Source: Octopus sinensis (lineage: Eukaryota). Taken from it: a stretch of 64,000 nucleotides of DNA. Made by a program: the position numbers and the translations under genes. Below, one piece after another: positions 16,135 to 59,935 of this stretch. The DNA is taken from assembly GCF_006345805.1 (NCBI RefSeq), contig NC_043014.1:2604001-2668000 (forward strand), written 5' to 3'. Positions within the stretch are counted from its first letter, which is position 1. Each line of letters opens with the position of its first letter. The notes below the pieces were generated by a model. It was not told the DNA's origin and searched no databases. It was given only the letters and a program-made list of their open reading frames with translations.

Positions 16135-16199
16135 TTAGTCGTCCCAATCATCGTCCAAATTTTCATCATCATCGCTGTCTTCCTCATCACTTTCACCAT
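16135..16199 (-). CDS. WASL: WASP last coding exon, acidic Arp2/3-binding tail
   Basis: tttttgcag|ATGGT...GACTAA. (D)GESDEEDSDDDENLDDDWDD*: acidic tail with the conserved Trp three residues from the end. Confidence 0.95.
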
Positions 16200-18289: not shown

Positions 18290-18392
18290 CAGATCCTTGC
18301 AAGGTTTTCTTTCTGTTGGCCAGTGCTCGGGACAATGCTCCGACAATTCCAGTGTCCTCAATGCCAGGGGACTGCGGGGTGCCGGCTTCCAC
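18290..18392 (-). CDS. WASL: WASP coding exon, central (C) region of VCA
   Basis: cacttgcag|GTG...TCTG|gtaaat, 103 nt, phase 0-1. VEAGTPQSPGIEDTGIVGALSRALANRKKTLQGS carries the GIVGAL...L..R motif. Confidence 0.94.
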
Positions 18393-19628: not shown

Positions 19629-20140
19629 CGGTTTCAAGTTCTTCATGCCAATATTGCGGATCTCACACATGAGGTTGCCTCTCTTGTCCTCAGACGCCGG
19701 CTGCGATGAGCTGTTGGGGGTGACCTTCTTCAGCTGTGCTCCACGATGGATCTCGTCCAGCAGGGCCGATCGATTTGAATCGCCCGAACTCGGCCTGCCA
19801 CCGTCCGGCTCGGACCTTCCGGGTTGGGGTAACGGGGGTAAGCCATGGGACGGCGAGCTGCCGGCATCGCTGCCTTCCACAGACTGCTGCCGCTGCATGG
19901 GGGGTGGCGGAGGAGGGGGCGGCGGTGGAGGGGGAGGAGGGGGAGGCGGCGGAGCGCCAGGAGCCTTTGGGGGAGGCGGGAGGTTGGAGCGTGCTGGCGG
20001 CGGCGGCGGGGGAGCAGTGGTGTTTCGTGTAGGCACTGAACGAGACGGGGGCACGGGAGCTGTGGATCGACTGGGAGGCACGGGTGGTGGCGCAGCTGAC
20101 CTTGCTGGGGTCGGTGGCCCAATATGACGAGGTGGTAGGG
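19629..20140 (-). CDS. WASL: WASP coding exon, proline-rich region and two WH2 motifs
   Basis: ctcctttcag|CCCTA...AAACCG|gtaacc, 512 nt, phase 1-0. Poly-Pro tracts followed by RSALLDEIHRGAQLKKV and RGNLMCEIRNIGMKNLKP(V), two WH2 motifs as in N-WASP. Confidence 0.95.
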
Positions 20141-20366
20141 CTGAAAGGAGAACACACAGAAGATTACACACAAAACATTACTGCTGTATAGGCAACAGTA
20201 CTTTCTCACCACCACTACTACTACTTCCATAACCACTGGCACCAATATCACAACAGATACATACCATTCTCCCACCACTACTGCAACAATAAAAGTACTG
20301 CAAGAGCAGAACTAAACTACCATAATACTCATGACCTGTACACTGCTTAAATAGTGGCAGTGCACT

Positions 20367-20587
20367 GCAACGACACTGGCAGTGCACTCCGGTGGCACTG
20401 GCCGTGCACTGGGGCGACGCTGGCCGTGCACTGGGGCGACGCTGGCCGTGCACTGGGGCGACGCTGGCCGTGCACTGGGGCGACGCTGGCCGTGCACTCC
20501 AGGCGACGCTGGCTGTGCACTCCAGGCGACGCTGGCTGTGCACTCCAGGCGACGCTGGCCATGCACTCCACTCCGGTGACGCCGGCA
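20367..20587. repeat. GC/CpG-rich 22-23-bp minisatellite
   Basis: About 9 copies of gcact(gg|cca)ggcgacgctggc(c|t)gt in the intron upstream of the poly-Pro exon. Confidence 0.9.
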
Positions 20588-21174
20588 GTACAATACAGCG
20601 AACAATCACTTATTTACCCAGATGTCCACCCAGGCAGAAACACATGCACACACCACTCAGACCGTTACTACTCAACCCATAACGAACTCCAAGAATATTT
20701 ACCAGCAGCATCATCACCATCACCACAGTCTATGATCAGATTGTGGTAAGAATGTGTTTCTGATTACATAGAGAGAGAGAGATGCAGATATACACAAACT
20801 ACGCTGAGGCATTTTGCCCCAACATTTTGTGGTGATGGTCAGCTCTTTCTGATCCACACAGAGAAACAGAGGAGAGAGAGGAAGAGAAGAGAGACAGAGA
20901 GATAAAAGAGAGAAGAGAAGAGAAACCCTTACTCTTATTACAAAGGGACAATAATGATGCCGTCTGTCCTCCCCACCTCCACTTACTGTGGGACGGTGGT
21001 CAACTGTTTCTCACTCACACACACACACACACACCCAGAAAGAGAGACACACACACACACACACACACAGAAAGAGACACACACACACAGAAAGAGACAC
21101 ATACACAGAGAAAGACACACACACACACACAAACTGAGTATACTGAGGTAGTTTGTCCCCCGCTCCGTACTTAC

Positions 21175-21352
21175 TGTGTGGTGGGGGCGGCGGATGCTGT
21201 TTCTGGTCCATCTCCTTCTTCACGGCATCGATTCCTCCGTTCTTTTCGACAAAGTCGTAGATGAACGTCAGGGTCTCCTTGTCCACCTCCTGGCTCGACG
21301 CCAGACCAATCGATTCCAGAAGCTGTTTCATGTGTTCTTCCATCTGATTTAT
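21175..21352 (-). CDS. WASL: WASP coding exon, GBD autoinhibitory helices
   Basis: tgttttag|ATA...CACA|gtaagt, 178 nt, phase 0-1. INQMEEHMKQLLESIGLASSQEVDKETLTFIYDFVEKNGGIDAVKKEMDQKQHPPPPPH. The IYDF.E..GG..AVK.E motif retains the regulatory Tyr (WASP Y291 / N-WASP Y256 equivalent). Confidence 0.95.
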
Positions 21353-34114: not shown

Positions 34115-34160
34115 ATCTACTTTTTTACAGTCAGGGTCCCAGCCTAAGTGTTTAATATGT
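34115..34160 (-). CDS. WASL: WASP coding exon, second half of CRIB
   Basis: tttttctcgtcag|ACAT...GAT|gtaagt, 46 nt, phase 2-0. (R)HIKHLGWDPDCKKVD completes the CRIB H..H.GWDP motif. Confidence 0.92.
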
Positions 34161-34469
34161 CTGACGAGAAAAAGAAAGAGAAGAAAGGAAATTACATGTG
34201 GAAGCCATAAAAGATACAAACTTGGACAGCGTTCAATAGACACCCCTCTTCCTCCTCGTCTTCCAAAACCAAAAACCACCAGTGTCCCCATTGTGACTTC
34301 ATAACAAAATCCATCCCTGGGCTCAAATGCCATTCACACCTCCATCGCAAACAGACTCAGCTTCTTGGTGTTGTTATGTCTTCCTTTCTAACTTAAAGTC
34401 CTCTCCTTCAAACATTCATACGTCGAAACCAACGGCAGCAACCGTTATTATACTATATGGCAGCTGAGT

Positions 34470-35235
34470 TACCAGTGCCGGTGGCACGTAAGAGAACCAT
34501 CTGAACGTGGCCGTTGCCAGCCCCGCCCCCCACTGGCCTCGTGCCGGTGGCATGTAAGAGAACCATCTGAACGTGGCCGTTGCCAGCGCCGCCCCCACTG
34601 GCCTCGTGCTGGTGGCACGTAAGAGAACCATCTGAACGTGGCCGTTGCTAGCGCCGCCCCCACTGGCCTCGTGCCGGTGGCATGTAAGAGAACCATCTGA
34701 ACGTGGCCGTTGCCAGCGCCGCCCCCACTGGCCTCGTGCCGGTGGCATGTAAGAGAACCATCTGAACGTGGCCGTTGCCAGCGCTGCCCCCACTGGCCTC
34801 GTGCCAGTGGCACGTAAAAAGCACCATCCGTTCGTGGCCTTTGCCAGCCTCGCCTGGCCCCCGTGCCGGTGGCACATAAAAAGCACCATCCGATCGTGGC
34901 CGTTTGCCAGACTCGTCTGGTACCTGTGCCGGTGGCACGTAAAAAGCACCATCCGTTCGTGGCCTTTGCCAGCCTCGCCTGGCCCCCGTGCCGGTGGCAC
35001 ATAAAAAGCACCATCCAATCATGGCCGTTTGCCAGACTCGTCTGGTACCTGTGTCGGTGGCACGTAAAAAGTACCCACTACACTCATTGAGTGGTTGGCG
35101 TCAGGAAGGGCATCCAGCTGTAGAAACATTGCCAGATCAGACTGGGCCTGGTGCAGCCTTCTGGCTTCCCAGACCCCAGTTGAACCATCCAACCCATGCT
35201 AGCATGGAAAGCGGATGCAAAACGATGATGATGAT
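34470..35235 (+). mobile_element. (GAT)n-tailed SINE-like family C with an expanded internal ~62-bp tandem array
   Basis: Five near-identical gtgccggtggca.gtaagagaaccatctgaacgtggccg units plus variant units, then ggaagggcatccagctgtagaaac...acgatgatgatg. Other copies near 4219, 5190, 8785, 12770, 13118, 16905, 21622, 27668, 30960, 42785, 44402, 46995, 50458, 51260, 52470, 56164 and 63040. Confidence 0.82.
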
Positions 35236-35410: not shown

Positions 35411-35510
35411 CGGAAGTTGGTAGGTTGTCCAATGTCTTGTTTTGTTAGGCGGGACTTTTTCTTCTCTTTCTTTATTGTTGATTTCTTCAGCGTACCATGT
35501 TGCGTAGAGC
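35411..35510 (-). CDS. WASL: WASP coding exon, basic region and first half of CRIB
   Basis: cttccag|GCT...TTCCG|gtaaga, 100 nt, phase 1-2. (G)STQHGTLKKSTIKKEKKKSRLTKQDIGQPTNF(R): poly-Lys basic region plus the LTK.DIG.P.NF CRIB motif. Confidence 0.93.
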
Positions 35511-36469: not shown

Positions 36470-36574
36470 CTCCAGTATCCGGGGTTTTCTGTAAAGGTGC
36501 CTTATTCAAAGTGACGTTATTCTGGGTCATGTTGCCTTGCTGGTTCCGTTGAGCATTCTGCTGGTTCCTCCGTT
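36470..36574 (-). CDS. WASL: WASP coding exon, linker after WH1
   Basis: ttttctcgcag|AACGG...GGAG|gtaagg, 105 nt, phase 1-1. (E)RRNQQNAQRNQQGNMTQNNVTLNKAPLQKTPDTG keeps frame between the flanking exons; no conserved motif. Confidence 0.8.
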
Positions 36575-40249: not shown

Positions 40250-40730
40250 AGGACTGGAGATTGACTGTTATATCCAGCCCTTAATCACAAAAAGCAGAGC
40301 CCTGGAGGGAAGATTCTAGAAGGTTTACCAACCCAAAGGCTGAAGACGCTCGACCTTTATTCTCTAGAAAAACGACGACGCCATGGTGATCTCATTCTCG
40401 CCCACAACATCATAAGCGGAAAGTGTAACCTCTCAAAAGAGCTGTTCTTCACTCCTGCTCCAGAGCGTCAGCTGCGGGGTCATTCCGAAAAGCTCTATCT
40501 GCGACGATTTCATCTCAATCGAAGGAGAGGGGCTTTCTCCGTCCGGGTTGCGGATCCGTGGAATAAGCTGCCAGACGAGTTGGTGAAGATGCCGACGACC
40601 GCTCGGTTCAAAGTCTCCCTTGACCACAAGTGGCCTGAACTCTTTACATGAACACCACCCTGTACATAACTCCATGTCCCCCTACATGGCCTTGCTTTTT
40701 GCTTTTTGAGCCAAAAAATTAACTTAACCC
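40250..40730 (+). mobile_element. 5'-truncated CR1-type LINE (ORF2 C-terminus and tail)
   Basis: RLKTLDLYSLEKRRRHGDLI...LRGHSEKL...AFSVRVADPWNKLPDELV...FKVSLD...* (TGA at 40649-40651), a typical CR1 ORF2 tail. Confidence 0.85.
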
Positions 40731-41413: not shown

Positions 41414-41500
41414 CTCAGCTTCAAATGTGTGGAAGAATGAACGAGGGCTCTTGTATTTCAGTTGATTGTACATCTCTTGTTCCCATAGCAACTGCTGCCG
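41414..41500 (-). CDS. WASL: WASP coding exon, WH1 middle
   Basis: ctttctttag|CGG...GAG|gtaagt, 87 nt, phase 0-0. RQQLLWEQEMYNQLKYKSPRSFFHTFEAE carries the LLWEQE.Y...Y..P..FFHTF motif. Confidence 0.95.
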
Positions 41501-47174: not shown

Positions 47175-48112
47175 CCATATGTACACATATACATACATGC
47201 ATACACATATGTACACATATATGCATTTATATATATATGTGTGTGTGTATACATATACACACATTTGAAAGAATATAAGTAACAACAATATGAGCAATAT
47301 TTCAAAACCTTTGTTCCTACAGCTGTTTCAATAACTCATTACATAATATTAAAGATAATCCTACTTATGTAATTCTACCACACAAGAATCACGTTTTTGG
47401 GGGTGGAGGGGGTTTCACAGATGAATTATAGATTTCAAATCAGCTCTTATGTAGGTTGAAGATTCAAGGAGAAAGTAAAATGAAAAAAAAAAAGAGAAAA
47501 TAAAATAAAGGAATATTGAGATGAAAAATAGGAAGAAAGCCTGAAGGTGGAAGAAGATGGCAGAAGACATACTCTTTTACTCATTTCAGTCATTTGACTG
47601 GAGCCATGCTGGAGCACCGCCTTTAGTTGAGCAAATCGACTCCAGGACGGCTCCAGTCATTTGACTGGAGCCATGCTGGAGCACCGCCTTTAGTTGAGCA
47701 AATCGACTCCAGGACTTATTCTTTGTAAGCCTAGTTCTTATTCTATCAGTCTCTTTTGCTGAACCGCTTAGTCACGGGGACGTAATCACACCAGCATCGG
47801 TTGTCAAGAGATGTTGGGAGGACAAACACAGACACACAAACACACATATATACGACGGGCTTCTTTAAGACTCCGTCTACCAAATCCACTCACATGGCTT
47901 TGGTCGGCCCGAGGCTATGGTAGAAGACACTTGCCCCTGGAAAATGGCTCAACATGGAAGATATTACAAGAAAACATGAAGAAAGAGGAAGATGATGAAG
48001 AGGAGGTATAAAGGACTTTGTGAACATATTTAAAAAAAAACACAAAAAACAGACAACAAAGTATGATGTTGGTGAGTGTAATTAATAGAAGCATTCCTGG
48101 TTCCGCTCTTAC

Positions 48113-49423
48113 CTCATCCATGGCATACACTTGTGCAAGGGACTTTAAATAATCAATCAGAATGGGATCAACCTCATAATATGATTGATGGTCTTCATTC
48201 TCCATATTGGAATCCTCGGTTCCATAATAATTACCATTGTCCAAAGAGCTGTTGTAATTATGGTAATTATTATTATTCTCCTCAAAAGCTCCCATAGAGT
48301 CTGGGTTTGTTTGGTAAGATTTGTAGCCGAGGGCCGAGCTGTGGTGGTGGCCACCAGTGGTGTTAGGACCAAACCCTTCATACTGACCATACCCTTGAGA
48401 TTTCTCATTGTATGCATCTGTTTTGCTGGATTCCTGGTAAGCACCGGTCATTTTATAGGGGTCGTATTTGTTATGGGAGGGGCTTGCTAGGTAGATAGCC
48501 TTGCTCCACATTTCACGAGGGTTAAAATTCCTATCGGATATTTTTGTAGTTGAAGCTGTTTGGTGGTGATGGTCATGGTGATCAGAATGTTGGGGGTCCT
48601 GATGGTGATGGTCGTGGTGGCTTGGCTGATAAACAGAATTGGTTGAGTCGTAAGAATTATGTCCATTGTACAATGCAATATTTCTATAATAGCTACGAGC
48701 ATGCTCAAGAGCCTTAGACCATCGGTCTTGAGGTTTCGCCGTGTCATATTGAACCGACTGATTGTATTCGTTATTATTATGATACACCGTACCATTGTGG
48801 TAAGAATGGTTAGATTCCAAATGGTGGTACTGAGAATTTTCATATTCAGAAGAAATATGGTTAGAATGGTTAGTCATATTACTGGAATTCTCTTTCTGGT
48901 AACCATTAGACATTTTGTCTTGATAAAACCGGTCATTCTGTGAATGTTTGGCTCCGTACGTCTGGGAGTGAGAGTCATATGGTACTTGGACGTCTCTAGA
49001 TGTTTGTCTGTAAACAGTTTGGTCAAAAGATTGCTGGCTATTAAACTTCTTTGAACTGGACAACTGACTGTGTGTGTAGTGAGTGGAGGTGTGATAGGGC
49101 TGTTGGTCAGAAGTCTGTTGGAAGTCAACTTGGTCAATGGAATTATTCTGACCATAAGAATACACAGGTTCAGCATGTTTGTAAGTGTGATGTTGTGTGC
49201 TATAGTCGGACTGAGAACTGGAATGGTGTCCATTGTATTGATATTCTTGGATAGGAGACAAAGTCTGGTTTTCGTGTGCCTGTTGTTGTGGTTGGGACGT
49301 CCAATGGGTACCATAGTCTAAGTATTCTTCCGATGGATCTTTCTCGCACAAACCGTACGGATCATACTTCCTATTTCCATTGAACGGTCTGTATGAGTAA
49401 CGGTACGGTTTGGTCGCCGCCAT
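48113..49423 (-). CDS. Candidate alternative first coding exon of the WASP gene (437 codons, low-complexity H/Y/N/Q/S-rich), or exon of a nested same-strand gene
   Basis: Stop-free 1311 nt from an ATG (in-frame TAA directly upstream) to ATGGATGAG|gtaaga. Phase 0, compatible with the phase-0 acceptor at 41500. No transposon motifs seen in the translation. Confidence 0.7.
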
Positions 49424-49948
49424 TTAGCCGAAGAAATCGGTGCAAAAGGAAGAGTTATTGGGAAATATTAGAATGCAGCAGTTTCTTTTTGTTTTTGATT
49501 TTTACTAATAGACAATCCATCTATTGTAACTATAAACTTGATATTGAGACAGCTACAGTAATTTCTGTGGATTAACAGCATGTAATTGGGGGGGGGGGTG
49601 ATGTGGTTCACAGGATGATAGTGGTGGCGGTGGGAGAATAGAATGCTGTTGCAATACAGATTAGGATTACCAATAGATAATCATTAAAAAGGATTATTGC
49701 ATCAAGGTATGTTCTCATTCTTCACCGAGTGGAACCCCTCCCCTACCATTGGTGGATTAATGGAATCTAGAGAGACTGCTGTCTAGTGGTGGCTCTGCGC
49801 TTTATTACTGAGGACATGGAGTCACGTGTTGGTCATAGCTTTGGCTGGCAATAAACGCTGAATCACACTGCGTAAGGTTAATTATGCAGCCATGCAAGGG
49901 ATTCTGGGAAATAAGTATGACGACAACAGAATGACCAAAGAGAGAAGA

Positions 49949-57242: not shown

Positions 57243-57383
57243 CTGCACATCGTATATCCGAAAGTAGTAAGAACGTCTGCTGTTGTCTTTGACAAAGCAG
57301 ACGGCTCCAGAATGTCTCTTGTTCCATTGCTGTAAGTTGGGTCGTTCTGCAAGAAACAGCTGGCAAAGGGCTGATGCTAAAGT
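57243..57383 (-). CDS. WASL: WASP/N-WASP coding exon, N-terminal half of WH1 (EVH1) domain (probably exon 2; exon 1 not found in window)
   Basis: tttgcag|ACT...CAG|gttggt, 141 nt, phase 0-0. Encodes TLASALCQLFLAERPNLQQWNKRHSGAVCFVKDNSRRSYYFRIYDVQ, matching the WASP-family WH1 motif W.K...G..C.VKDN..RSY..R..D. Confidence 0.93.
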
Positions 57384-57859
57384 CTGCAAAAGAGTAAAAT
57401 AATAATAATAATAATATAATAATAATAATCCAGCATTAGAAGCTGTGCAAAGACAATATAATAATAACAATAAAAATAATAATAATAATAATAATAATTA
57501 TGATGATGATGATTTCAAATTTTTGTCACAAGGGCAGCTTGGGGGGAGGGGATTAAGTGGATTGCACTGACCCCAGTGTTTCAGTGGTACTTAATTTATC
57601 AACCCCAAAAGAATGAAAGGCAAAATCGACCTCGGTGGAATTTGAACTCAGAATGCAGCTCATCACCTTCCATGATAATAATAATATTAACGATTTCTTT
57701 CATTTGCACCAGGGTGAAGGATGAAGGGGACAAAACAAAGACAGACATAAAGTGTGGGGGTTTTACAGGTAGTGAAAAAGAAAAAAGTATACATGGCATA
57801 CATTAAAAGAAGGGAATTATAGAATGTGGCACTAGAAGAAAAAAAAAAAGAAAAAAGTG

Positions 57860-59935
57860 ATAGTGATGGGGTCCTCCTGATATAGGCGGACCTCTAGGGA
57901 GGGTTGAGGAACCCCACCATCCAAGATCACCTTGGATACCAAGGATGAGTGCCCTCTCCAAATCTCTTTCTTCCGACTCACAGGTCTACTCTGAGAGTGG
58001 TACCATTCACTCTTGCCATTTTCACAACCTTCACTCAAGGACAGCACCTCCCTCTCCACCTTCACTTTATTATCCGAGTGAAACTTGAAAAAGTCAATGA
58101 GGAATGTTTCTGTCCTCATTCCTTCTAACCTCGTCCACCAGAGACACCCTGTTTTGCCAGAGCCACCCTGTTCATCACCTCTTCCCAATTCTTGTCCACC
58201 TGAAGGTCGGGACTGAACCAGACCCCGATCAGTTTAACAGGTCCATCAGCCCAACGTCCGCTGCTGCTGTCCAACAGCATTGATCTGCCTCTCCAGGTAC
58301 CCAGTTGCAATTCCACCAACTTGTCAGCGTTGATTTTGGCTTCTGCAATCGACTCATACTCCCTTACAATGGAGTTGACCATCTCCACATCAGAGGCATC
58401 CCAATACCATGATGGTGACATCATCTGTGTATGCCGACACTGCTCTCCTGAGTCCAATTTTGAAAGTGAGACCTCTTAACTGTTCCAAGTTCTGCAGCAG
58501 TAACTTGAGAGCCAACGCATACAGAAGAGGTGACAGCAGGCAGCTTTGACGTACTTAACATGCAATACTAAACGGTTCTGATAGGTGGCCATTTACTTTG
58601 ACCACCGAACAGGTGCCACTGTCCATTGCAGCAATCCAGCCTCTGAAAATGGGTCGGAAATCGGCCGCTTTTAAGACAGTTTCCAAGTAGCAATGGTTGA
58701 CTATCGAAAGCTTTCAACTATCTAAATTGATCAGGGCCCCATCAAAGCTAGCTTTAGTTATTGCCCTCTCTACAATTTATTGCATTAAGGTGGAGGCTGT
58801 CATGGATGGACCGGCTTGGGATAGCAGCACATTTGTGCCTCCCCGGCCAGCGACAAGCACAAACTTTTGTGCTAACACCTTGGCCAGAATCGTAAACTGT
58901 GTTTAGCAGAGTTATGGACTGAAAATTCCCTAGCATGTCCCCATTGCTGGCATCTTTTCTCAGCAGCATTAAACACCTTGGCTAACAGCACTAGGAATTC
59001 TCCCATTCTGCTGCCAGTTATTGCAGACATCTGCCAAGAAGCTACCAAACAAATCTGACACAAATAAACCGGGCAGTTTGCAACTTGTGCAATTGCTCAT
59101 CGCTTCCTGTATTTTAGTGGCTGTAATCAGCTTTATGCAGAACCTCATATCCATTACCAAGAGCCGTGGTAGGTTGTCCAGGTACGAAGTAAACTCTGCT
59201 ACTGTTGCCAATTCATCACCCTCTCTAAAAATCCATGCAAAGTGCTGCTGAAAAGCCACACATACCTGTCCTGAACCAAGTAGCACATACCTGTCCTGAT
59301 CCATCAAAGACTTTGTGTTTTTGTTTTCAGGTTGCATCACTACCATTCAGGCCCATTGGATGGCTTCAGATCCTCCGAGTTTTAGTGCACAGGCCTTAGC
59401 TCTGACAATGCACCCTTCATGTTTCACCTCAAAGAAATGGTCAAGGGCTATTCTCACTGCTAACACATCAATTGCGATGCCTTTACTAATAATCTCTTCC
59501 AGTTTGCTAACAAGTTCTCCCTCTAATCTATTTCTCTCTGTTGCTAATTCTTTGCTAAACGCTATCAATTCTACTCAAATTGCTCTCTTCAGAGCAATCT
59601 ACCACCAGTTGTTGATGATTGCCCCTGTCAACCACCACTTAACTATTTCACTAATCCAGTCTCTGTAGTCTTTGTGAGCCAGTAAGGACACATTCAACTT
59701 CCAGTAACTGGGTCTCTGTCTATGGGTCCTATCTAAACCAACTGTGCGTATCACAAATTTGTGATCTGAGTAGCTGACCAATTTAAATTGTGAAGAACCA
59801 ATGCTATTCCTATCCTCTGACCGTACAAATATTTTATCTTAATATGATCTGGATGACCCATTGTGGTTGCTCCTTGTCCACATTGGCGCATCTGGGAAAT
59901 CCAGTCAGTACCTGTCAGAAAGCTGGAAAGTCCAA
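57860..59935 (-). pseudogene. Decayed L1/Tx1-clade LINE ORF2 (endonuclease end and reverse transcriptase)
   Basis: Frameshifted motifs in the expected order: SDHKFV, YWKLNVSLL, KLPGL, NFQSITLLNT, IPSRSIHD, LLSPLLY, SAYTDDV (YxDD), AKINADK, LIGVWF. Confidence 0.85.

Follow-up and report, generated by a model that had tools for sequence, protein, structure and literature searches.

We confirmed that a 437-codon open reading frame (ORF) on the minus strand of the Octopus sinensis genome (49423-48113 of the window, i.e., the whole analyzed stretch of 64,000 nucleotides of contig NC_043014.1) is a genuine exon of WASP in octopus that is both spliced and under selection. Our reading, which we hold to be probable, is that this exon has its own promoter within WASP intron 2 and would give rise to a WASP of 868 amino acids (aa), in which the WIP site is replaced by a tyrosine-rich tail that likely retargets the Arp2/3 activator.

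Gene structure and coding potential

The frame comprises 1311 nt (437 codons) with zero stops; its ATG at 49423 directly follows an in-frame TAA, and its 3' boundary at 48113 is a phase-0 donor, GAG|GTAAGA, in frame with the exon beginning at 41500 (acceptor tttag). When positions 47901-49500 were shuffled 1000 times, the longest stop-free frame was 191 codons. Without splicing, the genomic frame would extend to 502 aa (47915). The encoded sequence is rich in serine (13.0%), tyrosine (11.0%), asparagine (9.2%), glutamine (8.9%), and histidine (8.7%), and contains the motifs KYDPY and WSKA twice each as well as His clusters. The stop-free frame, the TAA before the ATG, the donor in phase, the richness in Y/H/N/Q/S, the duplicated motifs, and the His clusters had been claimed in the original prediction and were found again in the window sequence or on recount. 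Additionally, four repeated 5-mers were identified in the ORF, compared with 0.16 on average over 5000 shuffles, and three of the four are overlapping parts of a single His repeat.

Only one copy of the exon exists in the 2.7-Gb genome at both the protein and DNA levels, with the exception of simple-repeat matches to its His tract; it is therefore not a repeat fragment. The genome yielded no paralogue of the motif region (best other match E 0.12, with stops), and a genome scan for the WSKA pattern in a loose form was uninformative.

The WASP gene lies on the minus strand of the window, and the alternative ORF is located downstream of exon 2 and upstream of the 41500 exon, in intron 2 (Table 1). 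The shared part consists of nine exons between 41500 and 16135, which together encode 431 aa, including the C-terminal half of WH1, the basic region, CRIB/GBD, the proline-rich region (PRD), two WH2 motifs, and the C and A regions. The donors of canonical exon 2 and of the alternative exon are both in phase 0, and the alternative exon stands in for canonical exons 1-2 (83 aa), giving modelled lengths of 868 aa for the alternative isoform and 514 aa for canonical WASP. In the exon model, the downstream shared exons are all intact and in frame through the stop. The GBD/CRIB was identified as a Pfam PBD match above the cut-off at residues 557-615 of an Octopus bimaculoides protein with the same exon (P0001, described below), and in window exons 35510-21175, including the basic region; the PRD and the C-terminal VCA with its terminal Trp are present in the in-frame exon model, which ends in DDDWDD-stop. 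On this model, the alternative ORF would, with very high probability, be translated into an 868-aa protein. The retention of basic-CRIB-PRD-VVCA proposed in the original prediction agrees with the exons, which are intact in the frame model; no contig was seen to connect the alternative exon with the VCA exons.

Table 1. Positions of WASP exons and of features of the alternative exon (window coordinates unless a contig is given).
Feature	Position	Strand	Remark
Canonical exon 1 (36 aa)	G000:C18:2680068-2679961		Outside window
Canonical exon 2, N-terminal half of WH1	57243..57383	-	Absent from isoform
Alternative 5' UTR, extent reached by contigs	49424..49564	-	Contig ends 49564, 49540, 49495
Alternative exon, coding part, 437 codons	48113..49423	-	ATG to phase-0 donor GAG|GTAAGA
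Conserved block 1 (aa 1-35), RKYDPY, PY-NLS-like	49319..49423	-	Consensus in PMC7930572, accessible text
WSKA motif 1 (about aa 229-247, AKPQDRWSKALEHARSYYR)	48683..48739	-	Weakly predicted helix
Conserved block 2 (aa 297-323)	48455..48535	-	WSKA motif 2, then HNKYDPY
Invariant 19-aa end of exon (aa 419-437)	48113..48169	-	Predicted single helix with shared-exon start
First shared exon (RQQLLWEQE...)	41414..41500	-	Acceptor used by either upstream exon
Shared exon, last WH1 strand and C-terminal helix	38851..38950	-	
Shared exon, linker	36470..36574	-	
Shared exon, basic region and CRIB start	35411..35510	-	
Shared exon, CRIB end	34115..34160	-	
Shared exon, autoinhibitory part of GBD	21175..21352	-	
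Shared exon, proline-rich region and two WH2 motifs	19629..20140	-	
Shared exon, central (C) region	18290..18392	-	
Last coding exon, acidic region	16135..16199	-	Ends DDDWDD-stop

Broken frames were also observed at 57832-59838 (minus strand) and 40265-40651 (plus strand), which we take to resemble pieces of LINE reverse transcriptase. In the WASP introns, short GC-rich units arranged in tandem arrays at 34416-35100 and 20178-20749 give several overlapping open frames. WH1-like stretches that span positions 9-86 or 9-88 of the profile, with one TAG each, are present on four small contigs (G000:C12602, C9082, C10146, and C8901; L005, L006, and L008); they are possibly processed pseudogenes of a WH1/EVH1 gene.

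Splicing of the alternative exon

Twenty sequencing runs were listed as holding the ORF, of which 17 were guessed to be RNA and none was recorded as such; their RNA origin is argued from the spliced joins and uncovered flanks. The run data are assembled contigs only, without strand, transcription start, or expression level. Four runs were aligned to the alternative exon and four to the 41500 acceptor exon. Exon coverage in the four runs extended from 48113 to about 49.5 kb and was zero on both flanks. In three of them (X2, X7, and X12, from three studies with two organism labels), contigs departed from the genome at 48113, and the 28 letters past this position matched uniquely to 41473-41500; the contig of the remaining run, X1, ended 9 nt before the donor, and no junction was visible there. 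Furthermore, a single 1642-nt contig of run X10, from a fourth study, bridged the alternative exon, the 41500 exon, and the 38950 exon, with 1425 letters on its upstream side (the first 30 corresponding to 48115-48144) and 128 letters past 41414 on its downstream side (the 30 shown belonging to the 38950 exon). The predicted splicing to the WASP exon at 41500 was accordingly recovered in contigs of four studies. None of the three outcomes named beforehand as speaking against the prediction was found, namely the absence of splicing to WASP, a broken frame in relatives, or splicing into a different gene.

The canonical junction 57243->41500 was seen in X1 and X4, and two incoming ends were present at the 41500 exon in X7. 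The canonical entry in X1 and X4, together with the alternative contigs of X2, X7, X12, and X10, indicates that the junctions 48113->41500 and 57243->41500 both exist. Contig depth for the alternative versus the canonical form was 23 versus 304 in X1 and 9 versus about 336 (by subtraction) in X7. Depth being a poor measure, these values give a hint that the alternative form is minor in X1 and X7, and the unbroken contig hints that it is dominant in X10; likewise, the differing contig depths among runs are only a hint of tissue bias.

Among other records, an 80-nt record of X2 has 30 letters in common with exon positions 48269-48298, the remainder being absent from the window. Under one organism label, runs X7-X17 hold 0.19-0.44 of the words and X18 holds 0.95, from which it follows that the label covers two genotypes or species.

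Selection and distribution

The alternative exon is under purifying selection. Between X7, a second lineage, and the window, there were 23 coding substitutions, 19 synonymous and 4 non-synonymous, with a pN/pS of 0.06-0.09 (p 7e-10 to 3e-7, according to a transition weighting of up to 8), and two 3-nt deletions, both frame-preserving. X12 carried the differences of X7 plus one second-position change.

The exon frame is also intact in two further genomes. P0001 (XP_014771603.1; Octopus bimaculoides, 679 aa, partial) has the same join into RQQLLWEQ and showed 90.9% identity in the alternative exon versus 92.6% over the shared exons. For P0002, identity in the exon is 79.7%; it keeps both the frame and the GT donor, and its sequence reads through the retained donor; the frame thus survives many indels at 80% identity. 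The RefSeq model XP_014771603.1 is marked 'partial' and stops in the PRD, and its RefSeq name is 'putative uncharacterized protein DDB_G0282499, partial', not WASP. The original prediction had known of no such WASP isoform, which holds for the name, whereas the join itself is already contained in this RefSeq model.

A phmmer search with P0001 over 1.84 billion representatives gave 977 matches, 150 of which were listed. Among the best 150 of the 977 matches, only P0001 and P0002 had their best stretch inside the alternative exon, and weak homologues from squid, cuttlefish, or other molluscs may stand among the remaining 827. Among the matches listed that could be placed by motif, none carried an extended non-canonical N-terminus with its join at the boundary used in octopus; about one third of those listed had no motif match and were judged by their first 80 residues only. 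P0063, considered as a long-N-terminus homologue, was rejected because it retains an intact exon 2 and is probably a mis-fused model. No longer homologue (766-2185 aa) was found among 933 candidates, which is weak evidence. The junction-region search returned only P0001, P0002, and the canonical WASP P0003; no family matched the alternative exon in the Pfam search, no usable match was obtained in an ESM Atlas search with the exon, and none of 281 pattern matches in the JGI metagenomes was confirmed. Within the limits of these searches, the exon looks octopod-restricted, with two homologues and none clearly outside octopods. In another WASP model, P0007, the C region is present in two tandem copies, which recalls the mutually exclusive exons of Aplysia WASP described in the accessible text of PMC3298513.

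Remnant of the WH1 domain

In agreement with the original prediction that half of WH1 is replaced, P0001 matched the Pfam WH1 profile at positions 54-110 of 111 only. A complete N-terminal WH1 is absent from the alternative isoform and present in the canonical isoform of the same gene, and the lost exon (57243..57383) bears a Trp aligned with the Trp of N-WASP and WASP. P0001 was folded with a 20-row alignment consisting of P0001, the window ORF, and 18 homologues from the best 150 of 977 matches; these homologues were picked as starting at or near the shared exon, and three include the preceding strand. The model showed a continuous helix across the junction (residues 417-447, pLDDT 65-73), three strands, and, after the strands, a long C-terminal helix (pLDDT 88-94). 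Residues 448-492 alone superposed on EVH1 domains over 44-45 residues out of about 110 (Z about 6, rmsd 1.1-1.4). Independent folding of the WH1 remnant is only predicted.

WIP binds the folded WH1 domain. Because about 45 of 110 WH1 residues are left, the strand with the conserved Trp is gone, and WIP needs a folded WH1, the alternative isoform should not bind WIP, a prediction that follows from established structure and that we consider very likely. The accessible text of a survey of WASP-family genes also describes WIP as a ligand of intact WH1 (PMC3298513).

The disordered N-terminal tail

The 437-aa tail was predicted to be disordered, as had been proposed for the N-terminus, with a FoldIndex of -0.28 (negative in every segment scored) and an AlphaFold pLDDT of 33.5, a low value that partly reflects shallowness because the alignment held three sequences. 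Weak helices were modelled from this alignment at residues 231-255, 302-313, and 420-434, the last of which (pLDDT about 50) corresponds to the terminal helix of the original prediction.

Across the three sequences, 321 of 437 positions were invariant. Conservation was high for Tyr (43 of 48), Phe (8 of 8), and Trp (3 of 3) compared with His (20 of 38) and Gly (10 of 20), and the aromatic residues together (54 of 59) were more often invariant than the other residues (267 of 378; Fisher p 4e-4). Aromatic residues are generally conserved in proteins, and therefore this signal is not specific to aromatic 'stickers'. Invariant runs of at least 19 residues were located at 14-35, 297-317, and 419-437; three such runs arose in 0.13% of permutations, and they take in KYDPY at its first occurrence, WSKA at its second (immediately ahead of the other KYDPY), and the tail helix. 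These patterns suggest that the tail may retarget the isoform via aromatic and short-motif contacts, which we regard as reasonably likely. The tail also has the sequence characteristics of prion-like domains, being disordered, rich in S/Y/N/Q, and conserved in its aromatics; formation of condensates by the tail, suggested by this composition, is a tentative and somewhat doubtful proposal.

The same features could be read as those of a nuclear or Transportin-chaperoned WASP, in which the two KYDPY motifs would be PY-NLSs and the Tyr/Ser/Gln/Asn tail would enter nuclear condensates. Both motifs fit R/K/H-x2-5-PY and are kept in three of three sequences, where they fall within or next to the longest two stretches of invariant residues (22 and 21 aa). 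The motifs are disordered and locally basic (+3 and +2, the net charge of the whole tail being -22), as in the consensus given in the accessible text of PMC7930572, i.e., R/K/H-x2-5-PY in a disordered, locally basic segment. However, the motif is loose, and since 26% of 5000 shuffles gave at least two such motifs, KYDPY as a PY-NLS is a lead only. Moreover, an acidic residue stands before each PY, and WSKA...YDPY fits the hydrophobic-type epitope only with A and K admitted as hydrophobic, a pattern set post hoc. We thus consider a nuclear WASP unlikely, and import of the isoform by Transportin, as suggested by these motifs, is similarly doubtful. The tail as a retargeting element of a WIP-independent Arp2/3 activator is the reading that we prefer.

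Transcript ends

The contig 5' ends (Table 1) had no loose ends, and the length of the X10 contig implies an end at about 49539. That the alternative exon is a first exon, as originally predicted, is well supported by these ends at 49495-49564, but it is not proven, since the evidence consists of contigs and contigs cannot show a start. The X1 contig begins at 49564 directly after CCACAG (CAG at 49566-49565), an acceptor-like context with a C run upstream, as would be expected if the exon were an internal cassette or followed a hidden upstream exon instead of having its own promoter, and a 12-base G/C run at 49588-49599, upstream of the contig ends, could truncate coverage. On the other hand, 5' loose ends were found in none of the four runs, while forks elsewhere leave 28-30 loose letters, no exon farther upstream was observed, and such an arrangement appears very unlikely. 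Even with an upstream exon, the protein would start at the ATG at 49423 because an in-frame TAA precedes it. The alternative 5' UTR contains an out-of-frame upstream ORF of 21 codons (49520-49455, minus strand), which stops 31 nt upstream of the main ATG and could lower the translation of the main ORF.

At the 3' side, no contig joining the alternative exon to the VCA exons was seen (the X10 contig extends about 128 nt beyond 41414), and the model in RefSeq stops in the PRD. These observations would fit a truncated isoform, in which early 3' ends produce a protein of tail plus GBD that lacks VCA and would act as a scaffold or Cdc42 decoy. This is highly improbable, however, as RefSeq labels its model 'partial', the downstream exons are all intact and in frame to the stop, and no alternative 3' end was seen. 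Finally, a non-functional by-product of transposon origin, cryptic splicing, or chance might account for the apparently low level in two runs and for the finding of no homologue beyond three octopod-like sequences among the best 150 of 977 matches, but it is extremely improbable for a single-copy exon with a pN/pS under 0.1, a frame that many indels at 80% identity have left unbroken, and a length that no shuffle nears.

Proposed mechanism

Under our preferred reading of an own-promoter exon, transcription would begin near 49.55 kb at an alternative promoter, and the exon would be spliced into the mid-WH1 coding region alongside the canonical form, possibly with expression that varies with cell type. 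The invariant last 19 residues of the exon would form a helix capping the WH1 remnant. The product would be a likely WIP-independent, Cdc42-gated Arp2/3 activator; as the GBD and VCA are retained in the model, autoinhibition and its release by Cdc42 should persist, which we consider likely. The tail would serve as a multivalent docking arm, with aromatic stickers and the KYDPY and WSKA motifs, and might place the protein in a compartment unreached by canonical WASP-WIP. A bolder version, which we regard as quite improbable, is that a new octopus exon, with no relatives known, creates through the choice of promoter a WIP-free, condensate-forming Arp2/3 activator that is imported by Transportin via two PY-NLSs and makes branched actin in the nucleus or in an octopus-specific compartment of one cell type, with half of WH1 refolded as a helix-capped mini-domain.

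Such a locus offers a natural test of WASP function without WIP, and of the way in which a new disordered targeting arm could be added onto a conserved actin machine within one lineage.

Comparison with known systems

The isoform derives from the same gene as canonical WASP and resembles canonical WASP and N-WASP in retaining the basic region, CRIB/GBD, PRD, two WH2 motifs, C, and A, but differs from them in having 437 unrelated residues in place of exons 1-2 (83 aa). The low-complexity domains of the FUS/hnRNP type are rich in Tyr/Ser/Gln. The octopus tail resembles the PY-NLS domains of these proteins in its Tyr/Ser/Gln-rich disorder and R/K/H-x2-5-PY motifs, whereas it is His/Asn-rich, Gly-poor (4.6%), and attached to an actin nucleation factor. 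XP_014771603.1 is the orthologous isoform with an identical join, although as an automatic partial model its join was machine-annotated but not recognized as WASP; this 'uncharacterized' RefSeq octopus protein is now identified as a WASP isoform. No published description of the octopus isoform was found in a literature search that covered few subscription journals, and the accessible parts of PMC13229842 and bioRxiv 10.1101/2025.10.27.684948 contained nothing decisive on it.

Alternative WASP promoters have a precedent in C. elegans, in which two isoforms of WASP, termed WSP-1A and WSP-1B, arise from two transcription starts (bioRxiv 10.1101/2024.09.23.614059); partial loss of WH1, as in octopus, is not mentioned for either form in the accessible part of that report, and no resemblance to the octopus exon emerged. 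In the available text of the WASP-family survey, a neural WASP transcript with exon 2 skipped was absent from cDNA data and judged a likely artefact (PMC3298513). The N-terminal WH1 strands are lost in both this transcript and the octopus form; however, the former is a plain deletion, whereas the latter adds a large selected exon and was seen in four studies.

A functional analogy may be WAWH, a WASP without WH1 reported from amoebae, Thecamonas, and Anolis, the type II form of which bears an N-terminal extension of its own that includes a serine-rich region (Kollmar et al. 2012, PMC3298513, accessible text). A GBD-PRD-VCA arrangement without a working WH1 is common to WAWH and the octopus isoform, which by analogy would work like WAWH. 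Nevertheless, WAWH proteins, as described there, are separate homologs, whereas the octopus form is one of the transcript isoforms that the WASP locus produces, with half of WH1 and a Tyr-rich tail; because it shares exons with canonical WASP and keeps the C-terminal half of WH1, it is not a WAWH. In the same text, one alternatively spliced WASP was found (Aplysia, C region), single transcripts were considered probably characteristic of WASP-family genes, and a halved WH1 was doubted (PMC3298513). With respect to this single-transcript view, as far as it is set out in the accessible text, the octopus locus provides a selected and transcribed counter-example.
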